NCBI GenBank assembly: GCA_002387735.1
Contig: DGKJ01000029.1
Span: forward strand, 5,015 to 69,014
DNA length: 64,000 nucleotides
DNA from: Bacteriovoracaceae bacterium UBA4573
Lineage (GTDB): Bacteria > Bdellovibrionota > UBA1018 > UBA923
Reading direction: 5' to 3'
The position numbers and the translations under genes were made by a program. Positions 1 through 14,779 of the stretch are shown one piece after another; within the stretch, counting starts at the first letter, position 1; each line of letters opens with the position of its first letter. The notes below the pieces were generated by a model. That model did not search any database. It was not told the origin of the DNA and saw only the letters and a program-made list of their open reading frames with translations.

Positions 1-13
1 AATCAGAGAATCA

Positions 14-1930
14 CTAGGCCGCAAAGGACTTCTTTTGAAACTGAACATTCGGAGGAACTGCACCGAAAACGATGGTCACGTCATCGGCAAGGTTTGCCGC
101 GTTCGGTCCGAAAAACGCCATCGTGTCGGCCATGAAGTCTTCACAAATAGCCGGAGCATTCGACGCGTGACGCTCATGCAGACTTTTGACCATTTTCACG
201 AGGGAGTTTCGACTGATGGTTTTACCTTCCGGATTGGTGCATTCCAGCACACCATCGGTATACCAAAGAATGACATCACCCGGCTCCAAGGCAACGGTAG
301 CCGGCTCTACTTGAATATTTAGGTCGTGCCCGAGTGGGTTGCAACGAGCGTCCATCAAAGGCTTAATTTTTTCTTGGCGGTAAATATAGGGTGGTCGGTG
401 GGATGCGTTTACAAACTCCATTTCACCACTGTCGAGATCAACCAAACTCGCGACAAAAGTCATGGTCGCTTCTTGTTTAGCTGCTGCAAAAACCACTGCA
501 TTGAGTGTTTCGATTACTTCCTTAATAGAGACCTTGGCCTGATCGCGCATGAACTTTTGAATGAGCATCGTGAAGCCGCCGTGCACAGCTGCCGTCACGA
601 GCGCGGAAGACACGCCGTGCCCGGTCACGTCACCGATTACGACTAGGAGTCGGTTTCCTATTGGAGCATAGAACCACCAGTCACCACCGCACTCACTAGC
701 GGGCACAACGCGACCGGCAAGCGTAAGGTTCATGTGTTCAAAGTGCTGCACTGGAAAAAATCGACTTTGCACCACTTGCGCGGTTTCAAGTTCCTTCTCC
801 ATTCGTGCTTTTTCGGCAGTCTGAGCCATGAGCTCATGAATCTTGTCCGCCATAGTATTAAACGACTGCCCTAGACTATTGATTTCGTCAGCAGTGTTAC
901 TCTCGGTTTGCACGCGCACCGAGAAATCCCCTTCCGACACCTGGCGCGTAGCATTCCACAACTCACGAATTCTTCGAGTGAGCCCTTTAACGAACAACAT
1001 CGCAAGACCGATCGACACCAATAAAATGCTGACGCCAAGAGCAAACGATCTTTGTACGAGAGCATGAGCCGCCGCAAACGCAGTGGCTTTAGGTATTGAC
1101 GCGACGACCGTGAATTTGCTCTTCCCTAGGCGTTCATAACTTAGAATGTAATCGTTTTTCTTAGGCCCGACCCATTCGCGGACGCCAGAAGGAAAAGTAG
1201 AAGCAAGTAGTTCTTTTACAATGGACGTCATAGCTTTTTCACTGAGCTCACCACTAGCTCCAAGCGCCTGATCAGAACCCGAAGAAGTCAATCTCTTGCC
1301 TGCACTGTCGTATAAAAAGATACTGGTATCCTTGCTGCCCACGCCCTTGAGCAGAGCCGCGTCTGGTTTAGCAACAGCCAGTAGGTAAACTCCTGCTCCC
1401 GTTAAATCAACTCCGTGGGACGCGATTAGCAGTTTACCATCTGGGTTCGTACCCAAAAGCATTTCAGTTTCGTTAAACTGTGAAGGAGTCCAACCCATGG
1501 CCACTAAATAACCTTCGAGCACGGTCTGTTCTTGGCCAAATGCCGCGTAGGACACAAAGGCCGAATCCTGAGCACGAAAAAACAACGCACTTTCTACGCC
1601 GATAGATTTATCAAATCGTTGAAACAATGTTTCACCGAACTCTCGATCATACTGCCCGTCGCTCCGCAGAAATGCGCCCATCATCCGGGTGTTTGAAACA
1701 ATTTTTGAAATCCAAGAATCGAAACTCTGAGTAGAAATACGAGACTGAGAGAGATTGTAGTCGTAAATGTAAGACACTTTATCACCAATAATCAGAGTCG
1801 TACCAATATAAAGGTAGGAACACAGACTCACCGTCAGCGTAAGTGTAACGAGAAGAATGATTTTAGCTCTAATCGAGAGCGACCAGAAGCGTCTCACGCT
1901 ACCTTTATCGTCGAAATTAATGAGAAACAT
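14..1930 (-). CDS. Membrane sensor serine phosphatase (RsbU-like): N-terminal TM, ~250-aa extracytoplasmic domain, second TM, HAMP domain, then a PP2C/SpoIIE phosphatase domain
   Basis: HAMP-like stretch LTRRIRELWNATRQVSEGDFSVRV...NSLGQSFNTMADKIHEL. PP2C/SpoIIE motifs GGDWWFY...VIGDVTGHGVSSALV...DGVLE. Two hydrophobic segments (res ~20-45 and ~290-310). ATG start confirmed on minus strand. Confidence 0.8.
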   Translation of the reverse strand: MFLINFDDKGSVRRFWSLSIRAKIILLVTLTLTVSLCSYLYIGTTLIIGDKVSYIYDYNLSQSRISTQSFDSWISKIVSNTRMMGAFLRSDGQYDREFGETLFQRFDKSIGVESALFFRAQDSAFVSYAAFGQEQTVLEGYLVAMGWTPSQFNETEMLLGTNPDGKLLIASHGVDLTGAGVYLLAVAKPDAALLKGVGSKDTSIFLYDSAGKRLTSSGSDQALGASGELSEKAMTSIVKELLASTFPSGVREWVGPKKNDYILSYERLGKSKFTVVASIPKATAFAAAHALVQRSFALGVSILLVSIGLAMLFVKGLTRRIRELWNATRQVSEGDFSVRVQTESNTADEINSLGQSFNTMADKIHELMAQTAEKARMEKELETAQVVQSRFFPVQHFEHMNLTLAGRVVPASECGGDWWFYAPIGNRLLVVIGDVTGHGVSSALVTAAVHGGFTMLIQKFMRDQAKVSIKEVIETLNAVVFAAAKQEATMTFVASLVDLDSGEMEFVNASHRPPYIYRQEKIKPLMDARCNPLGHDLNIQVEPATVALEPGDVILWYTDGVLECTNPEGKTISRNSLVKMVKSLHERHASNAPAICEDFMADTMAFFGPNAANLADDVTIVFGAVPPNVQFQKKSFAA

Positions 1931-1959
1931 GAGATTTCCGATAAGGTTCGTGAGGGATT

Positions 1960-3510
1960 ATGAACTCAGAACCTACCTCAAATGCCGAATCTGCAGCCAA
2001 ACCCCGGGTAGCTGTGGAAAAAAGTGCCGGCACTGATACGAATTTAACGTTGTACGCTAATCGCGAATCCAAAAAACGCGAACGGGCGGCCACCGCTTTT
2101 TGGCTTTTTTGCATTAGCCTAGGACTTTTTGGCCTACTAATCGTAAATACCTCGTCGCTCTGGAATCGAATTATCGGAACTTCTTACGCCCCCGAAGCGA
2201 TCGGAAAAATTTTCCTGCAAAAAACCGACGTCCGATACCGCCCGTCAGGCTCGATAGTCTGGATGGATCTTACCAAAAATTCTCAGGACGTAGGCAATGG
2301 AGACACCGTATTTACCGCTGCAACCGGTTCCGCAGAAATCAAATTTAACCGCGGCAATAGCGCACAGATCATGCCCAACTCCCTAGTGGTGATTCAAGAA
2401 TCCGACCGCGAAGCGGCATCGGGCAAAGGCGTACGGGGTTGGTTCGACAACAAACTTGCCTCGCGAGCGGCGGTCAACATTCTGGAAGGAACCGTAAAGT
2501 TAGGTTTCGCGGGCGATGCCAACCCAATTGATCTTAAGATCATGGGTAAGGACTACCGAGTAAGTGCTGCAGGCAGCGGAAGTAGCGTGAATATTTCCGT
2601 TGACCCGACGAATTCCAAAAAACAAGTCTCGATTACCGGCGATGGAAAAATTCAACTGGAAGCCGACGGTAAAAAGTCTTTGATTGATCCTGGAAAAATT
2701 GCCGCCGTGGGCGAAAATAAAAAGATCGAAATTGAGGAAGAAGTTTTTAAGCAGTCACTGCCAAGAAACAACGCTCGCCTAGTCATTGGAGAATCGACTC
2801 AAATAGGAGACGGTCGAGGCAATTTGCCTTTCGAGTGGTCTCGCCGAAAAACAGAAGTTGGTACCATAGAAATTGATGGCGCCGAACACCTACAAGTGCC
2901 CATACAAGCTGAAGACACCAAAACGAAAGTTCCGCTGCGGTCTGGCGATTACCGTTGGCGTTTAATTTCACGTTCACAGAAAAGCGGCAGCCCGTGGTTC
3001 GACTTCAGTGCGTTAGTGGTTGATCGACCTTCGATACGCTACCCAGCCCCTCAGACCGCTTTTCGAATTCCACACACTGAAGACGAAAAAGAAATACAAC
3101 TGGTATTCTCGCATCCAAATCCAGATTTTGAAGTGGAAACTCAGCTTTATGCGGTTGGTAAGTCTGGAGAACTCGTACTCAAACGCGAAGACTCTTTGCA
3201 GCCGGGAGCTCGTACAGGGCAACAAGAAGTTCTAGAGCTCGAACTAGAAGTCGGTCAGTACCAGTTGCGAGCACGCTCCGTTTACACTACCAAGGGCCAA
3301 AACCGCAAAGTTTACAGCCCTTGGACGCAACCAACGACATTCGCTATCATACGAGAGCCCGCGCCTACGCCGGTGCCCACTCCACGTCCAACTCCAATAG
3401 CGCGTAAACCCGCGAGTGAGGACATGAACTCTGATTCCCACTTAAAAAAACCTGCCATTCGCCCGCGGAATGGGAGTACAATTGACGAGCCGTTGATTAT
3501 TTATCCATAA
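1960..3510 (+). CDS. Membrane-anchored hypothetical protein, possible FecR-like domain, Pro-rich C-terminus
   Basis: N-terminal TM (AFWLFCISLGLFGLLIV). Segment GDTVFTAATGSAEIKFNRGNSAQIMPNSLVVIQ resembles FecR beta-rich fold. C-terminal PAPTPVPTPRPTP linker. Confidence 0.5.
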   Translation: MNSEPTSNAESAAKPRVAVEKSAGTDTNLTLYANRESKKRERAATAFWLFCISLGLFGLLIVNTSSLWNRIIGTSYAPEAIGKIFLQKTDVRYRPSGSIVWMDLTKNSQDVGNGDTVFTAATGSAEIKFNRGNSAQIMPNSLVVIQESDREAASGKGVRGWFDNKLASRAAVNILEGTVKLGFAGDANPIDLKIMGKDYRVSAAGSGSSVNISVDPTNSKKQVSITGDGKIQLEADGKKSLIDPGKIAAVGENKKIEIEEEVFKQSLPRNNARLVIGESTQIGDGRGNLPFEWSRRKTEVGTIEIDGAEHLQVPIQAEDTKTKVPLRSGDYRWRLISRSQKSGSPWFDFSALVVDRPSIRYPAPQTAFRIPHTEDEKEIQLVFSHPNPDFEVETQLYAVGKSGELVLKREDSLQPGARTGQQEVLELELEVGQYQLRARSVYTTKGQNRKVYSPWTQPTTFAIIREPAPTPVPTPRPTPIARKPASEDMNSDSHLKKPAIRPRNGSTIDEPLIIYP

Positions 3511-3525
3511 TGAAAAGAAATTCGA

Positions 3526-4047
3526 ATGAGCGACCCAACATTTATTTACACCATCGAAGAAATCGGAACTGGAATTCATGAGCTTCGCCTAGAGGGAACA
3601 CTCAACGAAGACGTAAACTTGGGTGAAGTAGCCGCGTCGGTCATTTCCCTTAAAGAACATTTGCAATCGCTCTCGATTGATCTCAGTCAAATTCGCATGA
3701 TCAATTCGTGCGGAATTCGTGAATGGATTCTTTTTCTGGAAGACATGGCGACCGTAACTAAGGTGCAGTTCAGTCGAGTAGGAAAACTATTTGTCGAACA
3801 AGCTAGCACTGTTCCGAACGTACTCGGAAAACCTGGCACTCACGTTTATAGCATTGAACTTCCCTACTATTGCACCAAGTGCGACGCTGCTTCGAATATT
3901 TTTCTTGAGACCTCAAAAATTCCTTTAGTAAATGGCCAGCCTAAGGCCCCTCAAAAAAAATGTCATCGTTGTGGCGAAGCACTTGAGATCGACGCATTTG
4001 AAGAAGAATATTTAAGCTTTCTTAAATACATGAAAGCAAAAAAATAA
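3526..4047 (+). CDS. STAS-domain (anti-sigma-factor-antagonist-like) protein with C-terminal zinc ribbon (two CxxC pairs)
   Basis: LRLEGTLNED...IDLSQIRMINSCGIREW matches the STAS/SpoIIAA core (L.GELD...DLS.V.F.DSSGLG) with the Ser at the phosphorylation position. C-terminus CTKC...CHRC...EEEYLSFL. Paralogous to the 12588..13055 product. Confidence 0.6.
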   Translation: MSDPTFIYTIEEIGTGIHELRLEGTLNEDVNLGEVAASVISLKEHLQSLSIDLSQIRMINSCGIREWILFLEDMATVTKVQFSRVGKLFVEQASTVPNVLGKPGTHVYSIELPYYCTKCDAASNIFLETSKIPLVNGQPKAPQKKCHRCGEALEIDAFEEEYLSFLKYMKAKK

Positions 4048-4565
4048 TGTCTGAAAAAATTCACGAAACACATCTCGCTCAATGGATTCGGCTCGCAGAA
4101 CCCGTACTCTCGGGTGCTCTAGACGCGGTGGCTGTTGTGGATTTACGAAACCAACTCGCTTACGCCAATCCGTCGATGAAAACTCTACTTAAATTGCGCC
4201 CATCGCACCTTGCAGGCAAAAAAAAGTTCTGCGACTGCATCACCCTCTCGATCTGTGCCAAAAAATGTCAAATCGAAGAGTTAATTCAAACCGCTACTGC
4301 GTTTCGCTTCGACGAAAGCCCTGCGGTTATTTCGAGCAAAGCGGACTCCACCAAGCTCCGAGTCAATATCCGTGGCGTCGCCGTTCCGAATCCCGACACC
4401 AAATCGAGCACCAAGACAATTGGTGCTGTCATCACTTTACGTGACACGTCGGCTGACGTACTCGTTCAGGCCAAGTACCACAAGCTCGCCGAACTTTTGA
4501 AGGAACGCGACGAAACCATTGCCGAACTCCGGCGTCTCAACGCTGTTTTGCGCCGAAAACCCTAG
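4047..4565 (+). CDS. PAS-like sensor domain protein with CxC-x6-C-x3-C cysteine cluster and C-terminal coiled coil
   Basis: ATGA overlap with upstream STAS gene (translational coupling). ALDAVAVVDLRNQLAYANPSMKTLL is a PAS N-cap-like stretch. CDCITLSICAKKC cluster. C-terminal heptad-like AELLKERDETIAELRRLNAVL. Confidence 0.45.
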   Translation: MSEKIHETHLAQWIRLAEPVLSGALDAVAVVDLRNQLAYANPSMKTLLKLRPSHLAGKKKFCDCITLSICAKKCQIEELIQTATAFRFDESPAVISSKADSTKLRVNIRGVAVPNPDTKSSTKTIGAVITLRDTSADVLVQAKYHKLAELLKERDETIAELRRLNAVLRRKP

Positions 4566-4651
4566 TTTCCGACAGAAATACTTCGATTTGACAACCCCCG
4601 TAGAATAACCACATTTATAGAGCTATTCAGATTTAGAGGAGATCGCCAATT

Positions 4652-5539
4652 ATGCTGACACACATGCGCCGCTACTTTTTGTTTTTCGTGGTGAACATTG
4701 GAATCGTATTAACGATTTCGTTGGTCCTAAATCTCCTAGGAGTATCACCCTATATTGAGGCGCGTGGCCTCAACATGGAATCTCTGGCGATCTACTGCTT
4801 AATCTGGGGTATGGCCGGGGCGTTTATTTCACTCGCCATCTCTCGCATCATGGCCAAAATGATGATGGGTGTAAAAGTAATTGACCCAATGACGCGCGAT
4901 AGTGAGCTTCAATGGCTCGTATCCACCACCCATGATTTTGCAAAAGCCGCTGGTCTGCGAAAAATGCCCGAAGTTGGTATTTACGAAAGCCCCGAGCTCA
5001 ATGCCTTTGCTACCGGCCCGACTAAAAATCGCGCGCTCGTTGCGGTATCAACTGGGCTTTTACGCCGCATGAATCGGTCGGAAATCGAGGGAGTTTTAGC
5101 CCATGAGGTTTCTCATATTTCCAATGGCGACATGGTGACGATGACGCTCATTCAAGGAATCATGAACGCGTTCGTCATGTTTCTTGCTCGTCTCATTGCA
5201 TTTGCGCTGACTCAGAACATGAAAGACGAAAGTCGCCCAATGGCTAGAATGTTTATAACCTTGGGATTAGAAATGGTGCTCGCCATCGTGAGCGCGATCG
5301 TCGTTGCCTACTTTTCACGCAAGCGCGAATTCCGGGCCGACCATGGCGGAGCGGTGCTGTCTGGCCGAGAAAATATGATCGCCGCGCTCCGTGCTTTAAA
5401 ACGCAATTTTCAACCACTTGACCCTCGCGGTGAGGCCCTTGCGACTCTCAAAATTTCAACTCGAAGTTCGTTTGCGGCTTTCTTAGCGACTCACCCGCCG
5501 CTTGAAGACCGCATTCGCAGGCTGGAACAATACCATTAA
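4652..5539 (+). CDS. htpX: Zinc metalloprotease HtpX (peptidase M48)
   Basis: Near-identical motif block to E. coli HtpX: ELNAFATGP...LVAVSTGLL...EGVLAHEVSHISNGDMVTMTLIQG (HExxH). Four TM segments. 295 aa. Confidence 0.85.
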   Translation: MLTHMRRYFLFFVVNIGIVLTISLVLNLLGVSPYIEARGLNMESLAIYCLIWGMAGAFISLAISRIMAKMMMGVKVIDPMTRDSELQWLVSTTHDFAKAAGLRKMPEVGIYESPELNAFATGPTKNRALVAVSTGLLRRMNRSEIEGVLAHEVSHISNGDMVTMTLIQGIMNAFVMFLARLIAFALTQNMKDESRPMARMFITLGLEMVLAIVSAIVVAYFSRKREFRADHGGAVLSGRENMIAALRALKRNFQPLDPRGEALATLKISTRSSFAAFLATHPPLEDRIRRLEQYH

Positions 5540-5542
5540 TCG

Positions 5543-5992
5543 CTAATGGAGCGTGGGGGGGTTGCCAGGAACCTCTTCGGCGCTTTCGGCGCCGTCGGCC
5601 TGCATGGGCACAAGTCGTACTGGCGGCGCTAAAATAAACCGCGGGATCACAATTTCAAAGCGGCCACCATCGACGGCCAACATCTCGTAGCGGCCTTCCA
5701 TTGCCCCGGTGTCGGTGGGAACTTGTGTAAAACTGCTATAGGTAAACGACTCTCCCGGATTCAGTATTGGGTGTTGTCCAATGACTCCGGCGCCACGCAC
5801 TTCTTTGACACCCCCAGCGGCGTCACTAATTTTCCAATAGCGATAAAGAAGTTGCACCACGCGTTCCGAACGATTGGTTATCTGAATTTCGTAGGACCAA
5901 GTATAAACCGGAGTAAAGGGTACAGACTGGCGGCGTTCAAAAATTGGCCGAGCTGTTACTTCGATGTCGTGGGTGACGGCGGTATAGTTCAT
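5543..5992 (-). CDS. apaG: ApaG (DUF525) protein
   Basis: IEVTARP...YTWSYEIQITNRSERVVQLLYRYWKISDAAGGVKEVRGAGVIGQHPILNPGESFTYSS aligns along the full length with ApaG. 149 aa. Confidence 0.8.
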   Translation of the reverse strand: MNYTAVTHDIEVTARPIFERRQSVPFTPVYTWSYEIQITNRSERVVQLLYRYWKISDAAGGVKEVRGAGVIGQHPILNPGESFTYSSFTQVPTDTGAMEGRYEMLAVDGGRFEIVIPRFILAPPVRLVPMQADGAESAEEVPGNPPTLH

Positions 5993-6312
5993 AATTTTGG
6001 TGACGTTATTAGTCTTCGCACACTCTCGGTGAGTTGATCAACTGCTTTAGCGTCGTTCTCTAGTTCGAAATGCCACTGCCCCTGGGGGTACGAAACCGCC
6101 ACGATCCCTTTTTCGCAGTGGCCTAAACAACCCGACGCATTCACCCGAATCCGATGTTGTGGATTTTCTCCGAAATCTCGGCACTTGTTTTTAACAGCCT
6201 CGCGCAGAGATCCTCCACCCTTGGCGCCACAGGACGCTCCGGTTTTTCGATCGTTGGTGCAGACAAAAAGATGAACATCGTATTTGTTAAACGCCTCAGT
6301 CATTGTTTCCAC
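5989..6312 (-). CDS. Thioredoxin-like [2Fe-2S] ferredoxin
   Basis: Cys pattern C-x10-C ... C-x3-C (CTNDRKTGASC ... SGCLGHC) typical of thioredoxin-fold 2Fe-2S ferredoxins. 107 aa. Confidence 0.6.
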   Translation of the reverse strand: METMTEAFNKYDVHLFVCTNDRKTGASCGAKGGGSLREAVKNKCRDFGENPQHRIRVNASGCLGHCEKGIVAVSYPQGQWHFELENDAKAVDQLTESVRRLITSPKL

Positions 6313-7399
6313 TCCCCAGAGAGTTCTTCGACTTGCCGGCGGCTCGCAACAGTCGGTCCTGAATTGCGGCCAACAGGCCTGATTCCTTGTCGCAATACTC
6401 AGCTAAAATTAGATCCAGCCCCAATACGTCAAGCTCGCGTAGCGTCGCGAAGAGTTTTTGGGCCATTTCCGATTCATCATTTTTTTCTGAAAGCACGCAT
6501 AGCCGTTCACATCTAGGATCCGCGACTGACGGCCCTGAAAGCAGTAGCACTCCAATTTTTTTTTGTGGGAATTTCGCAAACCCGTCGCGAAGCCCTAATT
6601 CTAATTCACTGCGTTTTTGGAGCAGAAGTTTTGTGGTCGGCGCGTAGTGACTAAGAAGTAGGCCGGGCGCCGGTAAAGGTGTATTTTGTTTCTCGTTTGC
6701 CGTTGAGTTCTGAGTTAACTTAAATGTTCCCAATTTTTTTAGTGCTAGCTCGAGACTCTCCATGGCCACTCCACCCGGCCGAAGGCACACTAGGTCTCCT
6801 GTTTTCGGATCTATCGCCACAATCGTCGATTCCACGCCAACTTGCGACGGCCCACCGTCGAGCACCGCCGAGATTCGGCCTTCTAATTCGGTCATCACAT
6901 GGGCTGCCAACGTTGGACTAATTCGCCCGAAGCGGTTTGCACTCGGGGCTGCGAGAGGCTCGTTTACACGCTCCAAAAGTTTCAACGCGATCGCCTGGCG
7001 TGGCACCCGCAAGCCAACCGTGCCAAGGCCACTAGTAACTAGATCTTTAATTCGATGCCCGCGCGGTAAAACCAACGTCAATGGACCAGGCCAGAACTTC
7101 TCCATCAGCGTTTCGGTCACGGTACGAGCCTGTGGTGAAAGACGGTCCGGATTAATAACCCCAGCTTCGCCCAGGGCATTGACCGAATTCCAGGTCGCCG
7201 GCAGGTGTACGATCAGGGGGTCAAAAAGCGGCCGCTCTTTGGCGCGGAATATTTTTAACACGGCTGTTTCATCAAAGGCCAGGGCAGCGAGTCCGTAAAC
7301 TGTTTCCGTGGGAATACCCACGAGCTCAGAGCCGAGGAGCAGCTGAGCGGCTCGTTCGATGCCAGTGGAATCCGCGGTTAAAAACTCGGTCTTGTGCAT
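6296..7399 (-). CDS. tsaC: L-threonylcarbamoyladenylate synthase (Sua5/YrdC family, with C-terminal Sua5 domain)
   Basis: YrdC signature GIPTETVYGLAA near N-terminus. 367 aa, consistent with YrdC plus Sua5 C-domain. Confidence 0.8.
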   Translation of the reverse strand: MHKTEFLTADSTGIERAAQLLLGSELVGIPTETVYGLAALAFDETAVLKIFRAKERPLFDPLIVHLPATWNSVNALGEAGVINPDRLSPQARTVTETLMEKFWPGPLTLVLPRGHRIKDLVTSGLGTVGLRVPRQAIALKLLERVNEPLAAPSANRFGRISPTLAAHVMTELEGRISAVLDGGPSQVGVESTIVAIDPKTGDLVCLRPGGVAMESLELALKKLGTFKLTQNSTANEKQNTPLPAPGLLLSHYAPTTKLLLQKRSELELGLRDGFAKFPQKKIGVLLLSGPSVADPRCERLCVLSEKNDESEMAQKLFATLRELDVLGLDLILAEYCDKESGLLAAIQDRLLRAAGKSKNSLGSGNND

Positions 7400-7418
7400 A
7401 TAGCCGCTTTACCATAGT

Positions 7419-8690
7419 TTGTTAGAAGAGTCTCGAATGGCAACACCACCGTCACAACCCGTGCTTGGCATCATAGGAGAAGGGCAATTAGCTCGAATGC
7501 TCGTCGAAGCGGCCGAGCGTCGTGGGATTTCAACTTGTGTCTGGAGTTCGCTCCCTCACTCACCCGTTAGCCACCTAGGCGCCGCCCATTGTGAAATAAC
7601 CGCTTCATTGGACTCGCTTCTTACCAAAGCCACCGTTGTGGCTTTTGAAAATGAATTTCAAGACACCGCCATGCTGCGGGCGGCGGCTCAAAAGGTCGGA
7701 CGTGACCCTGAACAACTTTTCATTCCAAAACTTTCGGCAATTCAGCTGTTGCAGGACAAACTGGAACAAAAAAACATCTGCACTCGCCTCGGTTTGCCGA
7801 CATCGCGTTTTTCAGCGGCACCCTCTGCATTTAACACCTCTGATGAGGCCTTCGCTTGGGCAACTGCGGCCTCAAGGCAGTTCCCCCGCGGATTTGTTTT
7901 TAAGTGGAGTCGTCTCGGGTACGACGGCAAAGGCGTCCTGGTTTTAAAGGAAGACGAAAACATCGACCGCGCCGATGTTCGACAAATTGCATTTTTTGAA
8001 GCCGCCATTAGCACCAAGGCGCTCGTTTACGTCGAAGAATATGTGCCCTTTACCAGCGAGTGTGCGCTCGTGAGTGCTCATCAGCCCGGGCCTGGTGATC
8101 CTGTTGCTCGTTATTTTCCTTTAGTACTAACGGAACAAACACAAGGCATCTGTACCCGAGCTCGGGGCCCAATGAAGGCGGGTTTGTCTTCCATTCTCGA
8201 AGCAAGCGCACGCAAAGCCGCTGACGCACTAGCAAAAGATCTTGGTCTTCAAGGGGTGTTTGCCATCGAATTTTTCGTAGTACCGGGTTCCAACAAACTC
8301 TGGATCAATGAAATAGCTCCTCGCGTCCACAATTCGGGCCACCTGACCCAAGACGCTTTCGACTCTAGTCAGTTTGATTTTCACGTTTTGGCTGCGCTGG
8401 GTCGACTGCACGAAAGCACGGCCCCGAAAACTCGGACTCCTCACTACGGAATGCTCAACATTCTGGGCCCTGCGGCAATGCAAAATTCTTTGCCAATCAC
8501 CGACGCTATTCCTTCGATTTCCGACTCCGTGGGCCGACTCCACTGGTACGGCAAAAGCGAAGTTAAAGCTGGGCGAAAACTTGGCCACATCAACCTTACC
8601 GCGGGTTCGATACCTGAACTTGATGACAAATTCCGAGAGGCCGAAGCATTCGTTCGTAATCTTCATTCACACTGGAGTTCGCATGGCTAA
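7419..8690 (+). CDS. purK: N5-carboxyaminoimidazole ribonucleotide synthase (ATP-grasp)
   Basis: LGIIGEGQLARMLVEAA matches the PurK N-terminus (GNGQLGRML). ATP-grasp body. 8-nt overlap with purE downstream. True start may be ATG 7437 (MATPP...). Confidence 0.85.
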   Translation: MLEESRMATPPSQPVLGIIGEGQLARMLVEAAERRGISTCVWSSLPHSPVSHLGAAHCEITASLDSLLTKATVVAFENEFQDTAMLRAAAQKVGRDPEQLFIPKLSAIQLLQDKLEQKNICTRLGLPTSRFSAAPSAFNTSDEAFAWATAASRQFPRGFVFKWSRLGYDGKGVLVLKEDENIDRADVRQIAFFEAAISTKALVYVEEYVPFTSECALVSAHQPGPGDPVARYFPLVLTEQTQGICTRARGPMKAGLSSILEASARKAADALAKDLGLQGVFAIEFFVVPGSNKLWINEIAPRVHNSGHLTQDAFDSSQFDFHVLAALGRLHESTAPKTRTPHYGMLNILGPAAMQNSLPITDAIPSISDSVGRLHWYGKSEVKAGRKLGHINLTAGSIPELDDKFREAEAFVRNLHSHWSSHG

Positions 8691-9198
8691 ACGAAAAAAA
8701 AGCAGTGGAGCAACCCGTTCTTCCCCGCTGGTCGGCATCGTAATGGGAAGCGACTCTGACCTTTCGGTTATGCGCGACGCTGCACAGGCGCTCAAAGGTC
8801 TTGGTGTACCTTATTCAATCGAAATTGTTTCGGCCCATCGCACGCCCCAAGAGGTTGCGCTGTACGCGGAGGCTGCCTTTGAAAAAGGACTGCGTGTTAT
8901 TATTGCCGGAGCAGGCGGGGCGGCTCACTTGCCCGGCATGATTGCGGCCCATTCGGTGCTACCTGTTATTGGCGTACCCGTGCCAATAGGGGAACTCCGT
9001 GGAATGGATGCGCTCCTATCGATAGTGCAAATGCCACGCGGAGTGCCGGTCGCGACTGTCGGCATTGGCAATGCTTGGAATGCGGGAGTTTTGGCCGCGC
9101 AAATCATTGCTACCAACGACAAACGTTTGCAAAATAAAATTGCGGACTACAAAGACACAATGCGCAAGAAGGTTCTTCGAAAAAAGATTTCAGCTTGA
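8683..9198 (+). CDS. purE: N5-CAIR mutase
   Basis: VGIVMGSDSDLSVM...IIAGAGGAAHLPGMIAA...PVIGVPV are hallmark PurE motifs. ATG at 8683 chosen inside longer ORF 8374..9198. Confidence 0.9.
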   Translation: MAKRKKSSGATRSSPLVGIVMGSDSDLSVMRDAAQALKGLGVPYSIEIVSAHRTPQEVALYAEAAFEKGLRVIIAGAGGAAHLPGMIAAHSVLPVIGVPVPIGELRGMDALLSIVQMPRGVPVATVGIGNAWNAGVLAAQIIATNDKRLQNKIADYKDTMRKKVLRKKISA

Positions 9199-9266
9199 AG
9201 GACCGCTCAGTTCCCCCTACTCTTGTAGAGTCAAATCTATCTTTAACAACACCGATGGAGAAATCA

Positions 9267-9773
9267 ATGTTTACAAAAACACGTTATTTCGCGCTCGCAG
9301 CAGTTGCCGCACTGAGTCTTACTTTCAGCGCTACCGTCACTTTCGCTATGGGCGATGCCGGTTGCGGTCTTGGAAGTGTTGTTTTCAGTTCAAATAAGAA
9401 ATTACACCAAATTCTTGCCGCCACTACTAACGGTACTTTTGGTAGCCAAACTTTCGGAATCACGACTGGAACATCTAATTGTAAAGCCAGTGGGTTTGCC
9501 AAAGTCGAAAAAGAACAAATTTTTTATGCCGAATCGAACTATAAAAATCTCATGACAGAAATGGCACAAGGTCGTGGTGAAAGTCTCGAAGGTTTTGCCC
9601 AAGTTCTTGGCTGCAACTCTGCGAGCACTCTGGATTTTGGAAAAATGACTCAGTCCCAATACGAAAGCATTTTTCCCAAAGCCGATACCACGGCCGTCGA
9701 AATGCTACGTTCAGTAAAACAACAAATTCAAGCCCACCCGAAACTTGCAAAGGCCTGCGGCCAAGTAGGTTAA
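9267..9773 (+). CDS. Secreted hypothetical protein (DUF3015-like, GCGLGS motif)
   Basis: Signal peptide MFTKTRYFALAAVAALSLTFSATVTFA. GGAG 6 nt upstream of ATG 9267. Mature region GDAGCGLGSVVF... resembles the DUF3015 family. Confidence 0.55.
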   Translation: MFTKTRYFALAAVAALSLTFSATVTFAMGDAGCGLGSVVFSSNKKLHQILAATTNGTFGSQTFGITTGTSNCKASGFAKVEKEQIFYAESNYKNLMTEMAQGRGESLEGFAQVLGCNSASTLDFGKMTQSQYESIFPKADTTAVEMLRSVKQQIQAHPKLAKACGQVG

Positions 9774-9780
9774 GTTTCAA

Positions 9781-11712
9781 GTGGTTTTCCGGTTGTTCCA
9801 ACAGGGCGTCGCAGTTGGCGGCGCCCTGTTTTTTTTACTTACAACGCAAGTCAGTATCGCCTTTTCGCAAAACCTTCCCACTTCTGAACGAATGCGGACC
9901 TTGTCGAATGAACGCTACTGGCATTTGTTGATGCACTATCGAAAAAACTTGTTCGGAGGTTATCGTTCCGAGGCCGACGGACTAGAGTTTTTTCTGGCAC
10001 CAGACGGTCGAACCGATCCTTACTCAGAACTGGTGGCCAATGTGCGCGCGTTTTTGCAGCCGGAACCGGTAAAAACCATTGGTCCGCTCAAACAACATCC
10101 AAGTTGTGCGTTTCCCGAACGCCACCGCTATTTAAAAGAACAATTGGGTTTGGCTACGCCTGTTGTCAAATGTCCTGACTTCGAAGCGTGGAGGCCCCGT
10201 TTTTCACCCTCTGGTGCTACGCTGGTATTTGCCTCTGCCTATTTGAATAACCCGGCATCAATGTTTGGACATACGTTTCTTCGAATAGATTCAAAACCTA
10301 GAATTGATCACACCAAGAAAAACGATCTTCTCGATTACGGCGTAAACTATTCTGCGAAAACTGGTGACGACGGAGGAATTACTTTTGCCGTTCTAGGCCT
10401 TATCGGTGGGTACCCAGGATTTTTTTCGTTACTCCCCTACTTCGAAAAAGTTCAGGAATACTCCGACGTCGAGAGCCGCGATCTTTGGGAATACCCACTC
10501 CATCTTGAACCCGAACAAATTCACCGAATGATCGGACACATTTGGGAACTCGGCAGTACTTATTTTGATTATTTTTTTTTCGACGAGAACTGTTCCTACC
10601 ACTTACTTTCACTTCTGGAAGTAGCCAACCCGAACTGGCACTTAACCGACGAGTTTTTTTACTGGGTGATTCCAAGCGACACAGTTCGAGTGCTAGCCAA
10701 GGTCCCAGGCGCACTCGGCCCCCCCACCTTTCGCCCCTCGCTCCAACGTCGACTTGAGCGCCAGTATGAGGACCTAAACCCAACTGAACTTGCGCAGTTC
10801 GAACATGCTCGCGACACCCAATTTAAGTTGAAAGGAAACGAATCGGTGGCGGTTCTCGATGTTTTGATCGATCAACAGAAATACGATCTAATGCGAAACC
10901 AACGAAACGAGACGGACCTCGACAAACAATTGCGCCGCGAACTTCTGCTGGCCCGCGCCAAATCTCTTGCAGTTTCCGATCAGAAATATTCCGGCCGAAT
11001 CGATGCCTGGCATTCCGCTGCAGTTAGCAACCGTCCGGACCATGGCGTGCACACCGCCAAACTTTCAGTATACGGCGGCTCGTTTCGAAAAACGGCATAC
11101 TATGGTCTGCAAATACGGCCGGTGTACCACGACTTGTTTGATCAAGACGCCGGCTATCTTGCATTCTCCGAGCTAACCATAGGACGCGTAAACCTCAGAA
11201 TATATCCCAGTGAAAAACGCGTGAGGTTACACTCTGCACATATCGCCGAAGTCACTTCGCTTGCGCCTTCAGATGCGCTCGGAAGCCGTCTGTCTTGGAG
11301 TGCAAGCGGTGGTTTAGTGTCGCCACGCGATGTGGCATGCCGCAATTGTAATGCCTTGGCCGTGGAAGGTGGCGCCGGTGAGAGCTTTTGGCTTTCGCCG
11401 CGTCAAAGTGGAATATTTTACGGCTTACTAAAAATTACTGCTCAGTACAGCGGTTGGTTCGATGCGAATATACGATTCGGTCCACTGGTAGACACCGGTG
11501 CGCTATTTAGTATTAGTGACCAATTAAAAACCGGGCTGCGGGCTCGGTTCACCTATTTTCCGACGCAAAAAATTCGCTGGTCGTTTGAACCCACTTTCAC
11601 CATGGGTTGGTTGTTCGCCAACCAAATGGAGTTTCGCTTTGAGCAAACTTGGACAGCCACGAAAGAAATTCACGGTTTTGACATGAATGGAGCGCTCGCC
11701 TGGTACTTTTGA
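9781..11712 (+). CDS. Large secreted hypothetical protein (possible DUF4105/Lnb-like N-domain plus beta-rich C-terminal half)
   Basis: GTG start 8 nt after upstream stop. N-terminus reads as a signal peptide (VFRLFQQGVAVGGALFFLLTTQVSIAFS). Alternative ATG at 9892. Conserved-looking HTFLRID...GYPGFF...ENCSYHLL block. Confidence 0.5.
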   Translation: MVFRLFQQGVAVGGALFFLLTTQVSIAFSQNLPTSERMRTLSNERYWHLLMHYRKNLFGGYRSEADGLEFFLAPDGRTDPYSELVANVRAFLQPEPVKTIGPLKQHPSCAFPERHRYLKEQLGLATPVVKCPDFEAWRPRFSPSGATLVFASAYLNNPASMFGHTFLRIDSKPRIDHTKKNDLLDYGVNYSAKTGDDGGITFAVLGLIGGYPGFFSLLPYFEKVQEYSDVESRDLWEYPLHLEPEQIHRMIGHIWELGSTYFDYFFFDENCSYHLLSLLEVANPNWHLTDEFFYWVIPSDTVRVLAKVPGALGPPTFRPSLQRRLERQYEDLNPTELAQFEHARDTQFKLKGNESVAVLDVLIDQQKYDLMRNQRNETDLDKQLRRELLLARAKSLAVSDQKYSGRIDAWHSAAVSNRPDHGVHTAKLSVYGGSFRKTAYYGLQIRPVYHDLFDQDAGYLAFSELTIGRVNLRIYPSEKRVRLHSAHIAEVTSLAPSDALGSRLSWSASGGLVSPRDVACRNCNALAVEGGAGESFWLSPRQSGIFYGLLKITAQYSGWFDANIRFGPLVDTGALFSISDQLKTGLRARFTYFPTQKIRWSFEPTFTMGWLFANQMEFRFEQTWTATKEIHGFDMNGALAWYF

Positions 11713-12572
11713 AACGCCGAATCAGTATCTGCTACTTCATTTCCGTTCTGGTTGCCGTCAGCGTTGGCGGCTGCGGCGGTTTTTTTTACCATCCTGATCG
11801 TGAAAAATATTTTGACCCCCATAAAAATGGTTTTAACCCGCAAGACGTTTGGTTCACTGCTGGAGACGGCGCCAAGCTCCACGGGTGGTGGTTCGCGGTG
11901 CCAAATGCTGTAGGCACGATCGTGCAGTTTCATGGCAACGCCGAAAATCTAACGAGCCATTTCGCCAGCCTGGCTTGGCTTACTCGGGAACGCTACAATC
12001 TTTTTATTTTCGACTACCGAGGTTACGGGCAATCTCCGGGCAACCCCGACGCGGCGGGGCTATACTTAGACGGCATGGCTGCGCTCGACACCGCGTGGGA
12101 TTTGCATCAGCGCACGTCTAGGTCGTCGAACCGTTTCGTGGTCTTTGCCCAAAGCTTGGGAGTAATCGTCGCAACACGTGCCTTTTCGGACTTTCAACAC
12201 CGCGACGCCACTTGGATGCTAGTGTTGGACTCTGGGTTTTGCTCTTTTAAAGACCTCGTGCAGGAAAAAATGGCAGACATCTGGATCACCTGGCCTTTCA
12301 GTCCGCTTGGCCGCCTAAGCGTTTCGGATCGATACGCCTGTCGTTCAGTGTTACCTTCACTTCGCGTTCCAACCCTTGTCATTCACGATGAAAACGACCC
12401 GGTCGTTGATATTCGCAATTCTGAAATGATTTTCGACGCACTCACCCAACAAGAAAAACATTTCTGGCGAATTAGCGAGGGGCGCCACGTCGCGGTATTC
12501 GCGATTGATCAACCGAATCGAAGAAAACTCTTTTTAGACCTCTTGTCGTCTCGCCTCGCTCGGGTAAAATGA
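11709..12572 (+). CDS. Alpha/beta-hydrolase-fold lipoprotein
   Basis: Lipobox-like VSVGGC. HG oxyanion motif (VQFHGNAEN). GxSxG nucleophile elbow (AQSLG). 287 aa. Confidence 0.7.
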   Translation: MKRRISICYFISVLVAVSVGGCGGFFYHPDREKYFDPHKNGFNPQDVWFTAGDGAKLHGWWFAVPNAVGTIVQFHGNAENLTSHFASLAWLTRERYNLFIFDYRGYGQSPGNPDAAGLYLDGMAALDTAWDLHQRTSRSSNRFVVFAQSLGVIVATRAFSDFQHRDATWMLVLDSGFCSFKDLVQEKMADIWITWPFSPLGRLSVSDRYACRSVLPSLRVPTLVIHDENDPVVDIRNSEMIFDALTQQEKHFWRISEGRHVAVFAIDQPNRRKLFLDLLSSRLARVK

Positions 12573-12587
12573 ATCAAAGAGGAATAC

Positions 12588-13055
12588 ATGCTCACCGCAA
12601 CCAAAGAAAATCGCGATGGTAAACAATTTGTTTTGTTAGGTGGCACAATCGACGAGACCGACGATTTGGCAAAAGTGATTGGAATGCCGACCGGCCCCTT
12701 GATTGTTTCTTGCCGAGATTTAACGCGAATAAATTCAGTCGGCGTAAAAAATTGGATGAAGTACTTTTCACAACTCCAACAAAATAAATTGCAGTTTGAA
12801 TTCGAAGAACTTTCGGTAGCGCTGGTCGAGCAAGTTAATATTGTCAAAAACTTCGCTTGCGGCGGCCCAGTGCTTTCGATCGCCATGCCGTTTCGGTGTA
12901 ATTCGTGTCAAACGGGATTAACCGGGGCCATCAAGACAGAAGTCGTACGATCGATGAATTTCAATATTGCACCGGTTCAGTGTCCAAAATGTGGCGGATC
13001 GGCGGAATTCGACGACGTGGCCGAAGAATATTTTTCGTTTCTCACGCGCAGCTAG
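12588..13055 (+). CDS. STAS-domain protein with C-terminal zinc ribbon (paralog of 3526..4047)
   Basis: LLGGTIDETDDL...CRDLTRINSVGVKNW (STAS core, conserved Ser). C-terminus CNSC...CPKC...AEEYFSFL. Same architecture and C-terminal EEYxSFL motif as the 3526..4047 product. Confidence 0.6.
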   Translation: MLTATKENRDGKQFVLLGGTIDETDDLAKVIGMPTGPLIVSCRDLTRINSVGVKNWMKYFSQLQQNKLQFEFEELSVALVEQVNIVKNFACGGPVLSIAMPFRCNSCQTGLTGAIKTEVVRSMNFNIAPVQCPKCGGSAEFDDVAEEYFSFLTRS

Positions 13056-13066
13056 AGGGTCGCACC

Positions 13067-14047
13067 ATGAGCGTCAATAAGCTAGTACTGGTGTCTTCGG
13101 GCCCTGAGGATCTCGACTTCGCACTAAAAGTTTGTCAGCGTTTTCGAATTCAGTTGGCCGTGCCTAAATCCTGGCATGAACTACTAGAGACTTTGAGTGA
13201 ATCCTACTCCACCTATATTTTCTGGGCCCTCGGTGATTTGGAACTTCACGACGCCTCTCACCCGTTTTTCATCGGAGCCATTGAAGAGGCACTCACCGGC
13301 CAAGTCGACCCTTCTCGAGTTTTCGCTCTTACGACTAAACCCATACACCACTACCAAGATATGTTTGAAAAGTTCCCCACGATCAAGGGCCGCTTTCAGC
13401 ACAATTTGATCCGCAATTATCCGCCGGGCTGTGAAATTCTTTACGCTAGGCTACTTGAATACTGTTCTGCTCCCGAGCCATCAGGGCTTCAAAAGCTTTT
13501 TGATCCTACGACTAAGATTCAACGACTCGCGCTCAAGAATTCTTCCCAAAAAAACTCCGCGGTTTCCGCCCTCGAAAAAACTCTGCTTAAAACCGGATTC
13601 GATGAACGAATTGCGTCCCGCATTGCGCAGGCGACTGACGAACTACTGATGAACGCAATATTCGACGCATCACGCGACTCCTCAGGGGTGGCCAACCGTC
13701 AAATGCTCGATCGCCGAGTGCATTTCGCCTTTGGCCCTCAAGAACCGGTGGAAATGGAGTTCGGCCTCAATCAAGAATATTTTGCGATCTGCGTCACAGA
13801 CCATTTCGGCTCCTTAAAAAAGGAAACTCTATTTAAATTTCTTCATCAAAATTACCAAGATAAGGACTACCAGCTCCGTAAATACGGTCCTGGAGCCGGT
13901 CTCGGGCTCTACGGCATTGTGGCGGGAGGTCTCAGCCTGCTCATATCCTGCAAACCCGGTAAAAGAACCGATGTAGCGGTGTTTTTCCCACGGGTGAAGA
14001 GCTATCGGGAGTTTCGAAAGAGTTTTCAGTTTACAGCTTTTTTTTAA
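13067..14047 (+). CDS. GHKL-ATPase-domain protein resembling anti-sigma-factor serine kinases (RsbW/SpoIIAB-like) with ~190-aa N-terminal extension
   Basis: ATG 13067 with GAGGGT SD 7 nt upstream. N-box-like ATDELLMNAIFDA. G1-like VTDHFGSL. G2-like GPGAGLGLYGI. N-terminal region KLVLVSSGPEDLDFALKV resembles a degenerate receiver. Confidence 0.5.
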   Translation: MSVNKLVLVSSGPEDLDFALKVCQRFRIQLAVPKSWHELLETLSESYSTYIFWALGDLELHDASHPFFIGAIEEALTGQVDPSRVFALTTKPIHHYQDMFEKFPTIKGRFQHNLIRNYPPGCEILYARLLEYCSAPEPSGLQKLFDPTTKIQRLALKNSSQKNSAVSALEKTLLKTGFDERIASRIAQATDELLMNAIFDASRDSSGVANRQMLDRRVHFAFGPQEPVEMEFGLNQEYFAICVTDHFGSLKKETLFKFLHQNYQDKDYQLRKYGPGAGLGLYGIVAGGLSLLISCKPGKRTDVAVFFPRVKSYREFRKSFQFTAFF

Positions 14048-14065
14048 AGGCACACAATATAAGCT

Positions 14066-14779
14066 GTGACAGGACGTCGCGTTTGGGCCCTTGGGCTCGC
14101 ACTATCGGTTGCTCTCCTTGGTATTTTCTTCTTCGAATCAGAGTCTTCGTCCCCCCCTGCAACCGCGGAGGTGGCGTTTTCTACTCACAACGCGCAACGA
14201 GCGCCGGCGGCCGAAACTCTTGCGCCGACTGAGGCCACGCAATTTGAAACCAGTGGTTGGGCTCCAGTGGTTGTTCCCGCGCCCGACAACGCCCGTCTGC
14301 TTGCCGAGCCTAACGCTTCTAGTGATTCCCAAGTCGCGGCTCTTCACACCTTACTACAGAGTGCGATTTTCGAGTCTGCCGATCTGGAAACACTTGCCCA
14401 CATTGCCCGCACTACGAGTCAGAATAAAACTCGGTACCTGGCGATAGAAGCCATTGCTCGCGCCGCAGATGCTCGCGCAGAAGCAATACTAATTGGCCTT
14501 TTCGAAGACCTCGACGACCCAACTTACTCTCAGGAAACGCGCTCTCAAATACTAAGCAGCATTGAGCCAAGCGATGCTAGTTCCAGCGGAAGTCGTTTTT
14601 TACTTACTCTTTTTTTCCGGGCCGACTTACCAGATTCACTCAAGGAACAAGCCCTTCAGGCACTCGTCGCAGTTTCAATTTCTGACGAATCCGCGATCGA
14701 AGTCTTGGTCCAGCAACTTCCCCAGACTTGGGCCGAACGCTTTATTCTGGCGACTCGGGCGATTCGAGGACAATCATGA
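14066..14779 (+). CDS. Secreted hypothetical protein with HEAT/armadillo-like helical repeats
   Basis: Signal peptide RRVWALGLALSVALLGIFF. Repeated helix-turn-helix stretches (LAHIARTTSQNKTRYLAIEAIARAADARAEAILIGLFEDLDD...). Confidence 0.4.
   Translation: MTGRRVWALGLALSVALLGIFFFESESSSPPATAEVAFSTHNAQRAPAAETLAPTEATQFETSGWAPVVVPAPDNARLLAEPNASSDSQVAALHTLLQSAIFESADLETLAHIARTTSQNKTRYLAIEAIARAADARAEAILIGLFEDLDDPTYSQETRSQILSSIEPSDASSSGSRFLLTLFFRADLPDSLKEQALQALVAVSISDESAIEVLVQQLPQTWAERFILATRAIRGQS

Follow-up and report, generated by a model that had tools for sequence, protein, structure and literature searches.

Within a 64,000-nucleotide stretch of the genome of Bacteriovoracaceae bacterium UBA4573 (assembly GCA_002387735.1, contig DGKJ01000029.1, positions 5,015 to 69,014; hereafter the window), we analyzed four neighboring genes encoding a HAMP-PP2C membrane phosphatase, a FecR-like protein, a 173-amino-acid (aa) protein that we call STAS-ZnR for its predicted fusion of a STAS domain to a four-cysteine (Cys4) zinc ribbon, and a short PAS protein. 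We read the locus as a divided version of a conserved cassette that is found mainly in Bdellovibrionota and Myxococcota and that is widespread, and uncharacterised, in predatory and gliding bacteria. An initial annotation made from the sequence had proposed a partner-switching module here. Such a module is the best reading of the locus because of the STAS fold, serine, and ribbon of STAS-ZnR and the linkage of its gene to HAMP-PP2C, FecR-like, and PAS genes, although the cassette is split and its usual kinase partner lies elsewhere. With moderate confidence, we favor a partner-switching-type phospho-switch in which a Bergerat kinase phosphorylates Ser61 of STAS-ZnR, the HAMP-PP2C phosphatase reverses this step, and the phospho-state selects either the kinase or the PAS protein as the partner. 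All four open reading frames (ORFs) were present in the window as initially annotated, and the same ORFs appear in public gene calls on the identical contig (ENA ERZ761592 NODE_3; JGI 3300005680).

The AlphaFold2 (AF2) model of the 173-aa protein, built on an alignment with three close homologs (the only ones found by a word-indexed protein search), formed a confident single unit (pLDDT 85, pTM 0.82). In a Foldseek search of the PDB, its N-terminal ~110 residues matched RsfB (8ih8), SpoIIAA (1tid/1th8), RsbV (6m36), RsbS (6jhk), and MlaB, with a probability of 1.00 and a best E-value (E) of 1.8e-4. The mDSaG motif bears the phosphorylated serine of SpoIIAA-type antagonists. A profile of 96 STAS-ZnR sequences matched the Thermotoga antagonist TM1442 (E 5e-5), and its iNScG motif, which corresponds to INSCG at residues 59–63 of the window protein, lies on mDSaG. 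Ser61, Gly63, and the four cysteines of the double-CxxC ribbon (C116xxC119...C146xxC149) are invariant across the 96 homologs. The two CxxC pairs lie ~30 residues apart in nearly all of the top 150 family matches, and zinc-ribbon matches are scattered over the C-terminal part among family members. Because of the STAS fold, the TM1442 profile match, the invariant serine, glycine, and cysteines, and the zinc-ribbon matches, we identify the protein, as modeled, as a fusion of a STAS domain with a Cys4 zinc ribbon, with Ser61 as the candidate phospho-acceptor.

This identity needed fold and profile evidence because the Pfam STAS models gave no match: PF01740 and PF13466 failed to hit the 173-aa protein even at E ≤ 1, Pfam and NCBIfam together returned nothing usable for it, and only 6 of the 96 family members matched Pfam STAS at E < 0.01. 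The lack of a STAS hit had been named in advance as an argument against the initial annotation; HMMER with Pfam did return none, and that objection is overturned solely by the fold and profile evidence. The annotated STAS domain with its INSCG serine and double-CxxC ribbon is thus upheld by fold, profile, and invariant cysteines, though not by Pfam.

The STAS-ZnR family was revealed only by exhaustive profile search, which retrieved 3,238 representatives (50% identity) at E ≤ 1e-3 and 1,262 at E ≤ 1e-10, mostly 155–190 aa in length and matching over their full length. Its members are mostly unnamed or "hypothetical", with one annotated as "anti-anti-sigma regulatory factor"; the family lacks a model in both Pfam and NCBIfam, and a literature search found no paper that brings a zinc ribbon together with STAS and partner switching. 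STAS-ZnR relatives are encoded in 420 stretches of species-representative genomes. The best 80 of these belong mostly to Bacteriovoracaceae, Bacteriovorax, Halobacteriovorax, Peredibacter, and Oligoflexia, and some to Myxococcota (Haliangium, Kofleriaceae, and Polyangia). A tandem double STAS-ZnR fusion (321 aa) and fusions of 299–721 aa in which the STAS-ZnR unit is C-terminal or internal were also observed (among P0106, P0113, P0127, P0029, and L148:2832-4997).

Gene neighborhoods were compared by ORF calling, labeling with phmmer and hidden Markov models (HMMs), and clustering on 81 genome loci, with Pfam run on representatives. Across 161 related loci, the usual operon order is a divergent FecR-like gene (~1000 aa), HAMP-PP2C (~515 aa), a REC-like/RsbW-like kinase (~310 aa), STAS-ZnR (~156 aa), a PAS hybrid histidine kinase (HisKA-HATPase-REC, ~510 aa), and a REC protein (~135 aa). 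The association of the STAS-ZnR gene with these partners recurred in two independent sets, one of genome and one of metagenome loci. The ~310-aa kinase domain immediately preceded STAS-ZnR in 55/75 loci of the genome set and 35/53 of the metagenome set, PP2C lay upstream on the same strand in 43/65 and 22/36 loci, respectively, and a histidine kinase followed directly downstream in 50/71 and 24/40 loci, respectively. These counts appear to far exceed the expectation for unlinked genes, and in many loci PP2C and the ~310-aa kinase are fused as one ~860-aa protein.

The window gene order itself, with PP2C on the minus strand and FecR-like, STAS-ZnR, and short PAS genes on the plus strand, was found in L007, a Bdellovibrionales metagenome-assembled genome (MAG). 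This bears out the expectation that the four genes would co-occur elsewhere, as does the linkage of STAS-ZnR to HAMP-PP2C, FecR-like, and PAS genes in many genomes. The STAS-ZnR and short PAS genes were adjacent in every window-subtype relative seen (L001, L003, L006, L007, L009, L010, L035, L085, L087, L088, and two JGI contigs). As a separate observation, two Oligoflexia MAGs carry genes for a His_Phos_1 protein of the histidine phosphatase superfamily and a TPR protein directly upstream of the STAS-ZnR/short-PAS pair (L003:4748-5380 and L010:4763-5356), in the position where other loci carry PP2C.

Table 1. Window genes considered in this analysis, with coordinates, strand, and basis of assignment
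Feature	Position	Strand	Basis
HAMP-PP2C membrane sensor phosphatase (SpoIIE/RsbU type), 638 aa	14..1930	-	Pfam HAMP and SpoIIE, transmembrane segments, PPM motifs
Single-pass membrane protein, 516 aa: putative periplasmic FecR-like beta-sandwich, then Ig/FN3-like repeats	1960..3510	+	Sub-threshold FecR, profile against PDB
STAS-ZnR paralog 1, 173 aa: predicted SpoIIAA-like STAS and C-terminal Cys4 zinc ribbon	3526..4047	+	AF2, Foldseek, family profile
Short PAS protein, 172 aa: C-terminal helix, Cys62/64/70/74	4047..4565	+	Sub-threshold PAS_9, homology to histidine-kinase sensor
STAS-ZnR paralog 2, 155 aa: NSVG Ser motif, C104xxC107...C132xxC135	12588..13055	+	BLASTP, Zn_ribbon_8
REC-like and RsbW/SpoIIAB-like Bergerat (GHKL) protein, 326 aa: candidate STAS serine kinase or anti-sigma-like partner	13067..14047	+	AF2, Foldseek, invariant ATP-binding boxes, position upstream of STAS-ZnR in related loci	

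The 638-aa phosphatase carries HAMP (E 1.8e-10) and SpoIIE/PP2C (E 7.8e-36) domains, both over the Pfam cut-offs, and its PF07228 (SpoIIE) score of 124.3 bits against a cut-off of 25 places it in that family. Two hydrophobic segments (~22–48 and 294–316) flank a loop of ~245 aa, taken to be periplasmic; this agrees with the large extracytoplasmic domain first noted. The PPM metal-site motifs are intact (GGDW415, GDVTGHG433, TDGV558, and DDVT616). The protein shares 30% identity with the phosphatase encoded upstream of STAS-ZnR in the operon of locus L016, across residues 48–527 of the latter and with the periplasmic part included.

The stop codon of STAS-ZnR and the start codon of the short PAS gene share one base (TAATG, at the junction ...AAATAATGTCT) and do not form the ATGA overlap originally described. 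Pfam PAS_9 matched the 172-aa product below threshold (E 0.0018; 18.9 bits against a cut-off of 27), the identical protein is labeled "PAS domain-containing protein" at NCBI, and PAS_4 matches, not marked as above the cut-off, occurred in the short-PAS homologs next to P0002 and P0003. An HMM of the short PAS proteins aligned almost end to end with the first ~150 residues of the histidine kinases encoded after STAS-ZnR in other loci, with E of 1e-13 to 4e-16 in Myxococcota and ~1e-4 to 1e-8 in Bacteriovoracaceae. Because of this match, the 172-aa protein is, by homology, a stand-alone copy of the histidine-kinase sensor domain together with its exit helix. Residues D89, E90, R132, Q141, K143, and Y144 are invariant among the short PAS proteins.

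The cysteines of this protein form a CxC-x5-C-x3-C cluster (C62-x-C64-x5-C70-x3-C74), which corrects the spacing of CDC-x6-C-x3-C given initially. C62, C70, and C74 are kept in 8/10 Oligoflexia-type PAS homologs, with similar cysteines in Myxococcota, and C64 is limited to the closest relatives. The cluster is absent from the L007 and P0276 homologs and from all Bacteriovoracaceae kinase PAS domains. The four cysteines were considered as a fixed metal site of the family and rejected as such, the cluster being partial or absent among homologs. Redox or metal sensing by the cluster is therefore speculation, since it is not a fixed family feature. In Myxococcota, cassettes with a PAS histidine kinase after STAS-ZnR also carry a separate short Cys-rich PAS protein (165–230 aa) nearby (L049, L054, L056, L064, L068, L081, L130, L159, and L161-L163), and in most of these loci the separate gene adjoins the PP2C gene. 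A PAS protein encoded on its own thus occurs outside the window lineage as well.

The match of the 516-aa protein to Pfam FecR (PF04773) had an E of 0.048 and, at 14.5 bits, missed the cut-off of 24; the evidence at the level of the family is weak though consistent. The homologs in L007 and L016, also under the cut-off, matched FecR with E of 2.6e-4 and 6.3e-5 (21.8 and 23.8 bits), respectively, and the family profile matched the putative anti-sigma factor 4m0h (E 0.003), PupR 6ovk (E 0.42), and titin/FN3 structures in the PDB. This similarity raises the alternative of FecR/ECF-type trans-envelope signaling (ECF, extracytoplasmic function), in which the 516-aa protein would be an anti-sigma factor and the other genes unrelated neighbors. 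Its single transmembrane (TM) segment at residues 45–65 leaves ~45 cytoplasmic residues ahead of it, which is too short for a FecR-type anti-sigma domain. Neither such an N-terminal domain nor an adjacent ECF sigma gene was found for the 516-aa gene, which has PP2C and STAS-ZnR genes as its neighbors, and in ~45/81 genome loci a larger homolog (~1000 aa) is encoded divergently from the PP2C gene and is linked to it rather than to a sigma gene. We regard this alternative as highly improbable and an anti-sigma role of the 516-aa protein as unlikely. Because of the ~45 cytoplasmic residues and the lack of a nearby sigma gene, the protein is more likely a periplasmic co-sensor of HAMP-PP2C.

The initial annotation noted no RsbW kinase; this is true for positions 14 to 4,565, but a candidate lies further into the window, next to a second STAS-ZnR gene. 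Paralog 2 is 28% identical to paralog 1 (BLASTP E 3e-14) and matches Zn_ribbon_8 (E 5.6e-4). The gene for the 326-aa candidate starts 11 bases past it, 8.5 kb from the split cassette, and the pair also occurs in the 78%-identical relative L001 (10050-11518). The AF2 model of the 326-aa protein reached a pLDDT of 92 and a pTM of 0.90. Its best PDB match in Foldseek was LvrC of Leptospira (9qih, E 4e-8), followed by SpoIIAB (TMt 0.73–0.80), RsbW (TMt 0.81–0.88), and UsfX. Foldseek settled the fold: against the PDB, the matches of kinase-family HMM profiles to REC and HATPase structures were weak, the HATPase_c_2 score of the 326-aa protein (16.3 bits) did not reach the gathering score of 27.4, and among 21 kinase relatives HATPase_c_2 was matched in 3 and HATPase_c in 5 (E < 0.1). 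The motifs NELxxNA, DxFGxL, and GAGLGLY characterize the ~310-aa kinase family. ATP binding is likely retained because the residues of the N box (E192/N196), G1 box (D245/G248), and G2 box (G278/G280) are invariant in 64 homologs. Across the same 64 homologs, the REC-like half has no invariant acceptor Asp, and the domain may therefore be a pseudo-receiver.

The same fold matches suit a classical sigma-factor switch, in which the REC-like/Bergerat protein would be the anti-sigma factor of a sigma factor encoded elsewhere, and STAS-ZnR the anti-anti-sigma factor. The PAS protein or kinase would then contribute input alone and could, for instance, phosphorylate the REC-like domain, as LvrB phosphorylates LvrC. 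LvrC, the best structural match, is itself a REC-Bergerat protein and proposed anti-sigma factor phosphorylated by a histidine kinase (PMC13269768); RsbW, SpoIIAB, and UsfX come next, and a hybrid histidine kinase and a REC protein share the operon in most relatives. Against this, no sigma-factor domain appeared in the Pfam matches (E up to 0.01–1) of 17 window ORFs between 14 and 19.8 kb, a scan that covered not every ORF of that interval and was not extended to the rest of the genome, or in those of the L016 operon genes, and no acceptor Asp of the REC-like domain is invariant in the 64 homologs. We consider a sigma-factor output of this kind unlikely.

In the phospho-switch that we prefer, STAS-ZnR paralog 1 would be the switch protein. 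A REC-like/RsbW-like Bergerat kinase, for which the 326-aa protein beside paralog 2 is the sole candidate in the window, would phosphorylate Ser61, and the membrane HAMP-PP2C would dephosphorylate it, with its activity set by a periplasmic signal probably read jointly with the divergently encoded FecR-like protein. The phospho-state would then choose between two partners of STAS-ZnR, the kinase and the PAS sensor encoded directly downstream. In most relatives the PAS domain would provide the input to a hybrid histidine kinase with a REC protein next to it, and the output would be a two-component relay instead of an adjacent sigma factor. In the window lineage PAS stands alone and would have to work via protein contacts. 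The invariant Cys4 ribbon may provide a structural zinc site for partner binding, one that is possibly thiol-sensitive.

Several observations, in addition to the missing Pfam STAS match, weigh against this scheme for the window. Only some window-subtype loci (the window, L007, and L088) have PP2C close by, and none was found in the examined flanks of L003, L009, L010, and L087. The 64-kb window contains no homolog of the operon histidine kinases of L016 and L068 or of the L016 receiver. Paralog 1 has no adjacent kinase in the window, where the 326-aa kinase is paired with paralog 2. That kinase is, moreover, a divergent subtype with 17–24% identity to the operon kinases, and paralog 1 is the closer of the two paralogs to the STAS-ZnR of the L016 operon (35% identity, against 25% for paralog 2); for these two reasons, it is uncertain whether the 326-aa kinase acts on paralog 1.

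Some of these points would also fit a STAS-ZnR that is not phospho-regulated and, like MlaB with MlaF or the STAS domains of SLC26 transporters, serves as a constitutive adaptor or a small-molecule- or zinc-binding subunit of the PAS sensor, with PP2C having another substrate. MlaB and SLC26 STAS domains are indeed among the fold matches, several window-subtype relatives (L003, L010, and L087) show no PP2C or kinase in the examined flank, and the STAS-PAS pair is the tightest link in this subtype. Such a role leaves aside the invariance of Ser61 and Gly63 in the 96 homologs and the alignment of Ser61 with the DSaG serine of TM1442 in the profile comparison, and in most loci a Bergerat kinase and PP2C, often fused, flank the STAS-ZnR gene. 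We therefore judge it quite unlikely, less so than the FecR/ECF alternative, and continue to prefer the phospho-switch.

All parts of the cassette belong to known superfamilies, and its logic resembles that of RsbU/V/W, HsbR/HsbA, SypE/SypA, SiaABC, and LvrB/LvrC. As in RsbU-RsbV-RsbW-sigmaB and SpoIIE-SpoIIAA-SpoIIAB-sigmaF of Bacillus, a PP2C phosphatase is combined with a STAS protein bearing D/N-S-x-G and a Bergerat serine kinase. The cassette departs from the Bacillus systems in the invariant Cys4 zinc ribbon at the C-terminus of its STAS protein, in a REC-like domain added to the N-terminus of the kinase, in a phosphatase that is a membrane sensor with a HAMP domain, and in an operon where genes for a PAS hybrid histidine kinase and a REC protein follow in place of a sigma gene. 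HsbR-HsbA-HptB of Pseudomonas aeruginosa and SypE-SypA of Vibrio fischeri likewise combine PP2C, receiver, and RsbW-like kinase, modules that in many relatives of the window locus are PP2C and kinase fused in one protein; they also target a single-domain STAS protein, are wired to hybrid histidine kinases, and have outputs beyond sigma factors (PMC6482189, PMC10120452). The cassette differs from both in its domain order (TM-HAMP-PP2C-REC-like-kinase) with periplasmic input, in a REC-like domain that may be a pseudo-receiver, in the zinc ribbon of its STAS protein, and in that no Hpt protein was seen.

LvrC of the LvrB-LvrC system of Leptospira is described as RsbW-like, regulated through REC, and receiving its input from a histidine kinase, and the two systems share the combination of REC with a Bergerat anti-sigma-like domain and the link of a histidine kinase to partner switching; the passages on LvrC in its account name no STAS-ZnR or PP2C partner (PMC13269768). 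The sequence identity between LvrC and the 326-aa protein is ~16%. SiaA-SiaB-SiaC-SiaD of P. aeruginosa similarly opposes a membrane HAMP-PP2C to a kinase on a small protein and has a non-sigma output, although SiaC is not a STAS-ZnR protein and the output there is a diguanylate cyclase (PMC8457831). The SiaA model was the best named NCBIfam match of the 638-aa phosphatase (E 1.9e-17), but with 63 bits against a SiaA cut-off of 700 the protein is not an ortholog.

Four features set the cassette apart from these known systems: the invariant zinc ribbon on STAS, a REC-like domain at the start of the kinase, the pairing of a membrane PP2C with a FecR-like protein, and a PAS histidine kinase and REC protein that are fixed downstream where a sigma factor would be expected. 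A more far-reaching interpretation, which we put forward as possible though on the unlikely side, is that STAS-ZnR represents a new class of switch linking serine phosphorylation directly to a PAS sensor or histidine kinase, as a relay from partner switch to two-component system without a sigma factor, with the Cys4 ribbon and the Cys-rich PAS domain (the latter in Oligoflexia and Myxococcota) making the switch sensitive to thiol oxidation or zinc, and that in predatory bacteria the cassette could gate a lifestyle decision upon an envelope signal. The family is concentrated in Bdellovibrionota, which are predators, and in Myxococcota, groups whose signaling is rich and poorly mapped. The operon offers a testable wiring from periplasmic input through HAMP-PP2C and the opposing REC-like kinase to STAS-ZnR, the PAS histidine kinase, and REC. 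Such a wiring diagram would extend partner switching to the direct control of a two-component system, and STAS-ZnR and the REC-like/Bergerat kinase would each stand as a new domain family.

A few further features of the region were recorded. An Rfam scan of window positions 1..16000 found nothing, and a scan for promoters and terminators gave chance-level counts, barring one promoter-like site matching 10/12 positions. This sigma-70-like site (TTGACG-18-CATAAT, window 3482..3511) lies 15 bp ahead of the STAS-ZnR start and could be an own promoter of the STAS-PAS pair, in a region where such sites are at chance level overall. A 274-aa gene (L082:5082-5906, minus strand), situated immediately outside the left edge of the window, lies 61 bp downstream of PP2C on the same strand and may be co-transcribed with it. 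Its product was considered as a kinase candidate and rejected, having no Pfam match and a hydrophobic, signal-peptide-like start; it may be exported. HEAT_2-repeat proteins adjoin both modules, that of PP2C and STAS-ZnR paralog 1 and that of paralog 2 and the kinase: a 753-aa HEAT_2 protein (E 1e-16; L082:2813-5074) is encoded just past the PP2C gene and its 274-aa neighbor, left of the window edge, and a 237-aa ORF with a weak HEAT_2 match (14066..14779) comes after the 326-aa kinase gene. Finally, a 107-aa Cys-containing protein (window 5989..6312, minus strand) with weak matches to DUF1636 and thioredoxin-like [2Fe-2S] ferredoxin is encoded between the ApaG and Sua5/YrdC genes and is kept in L001.

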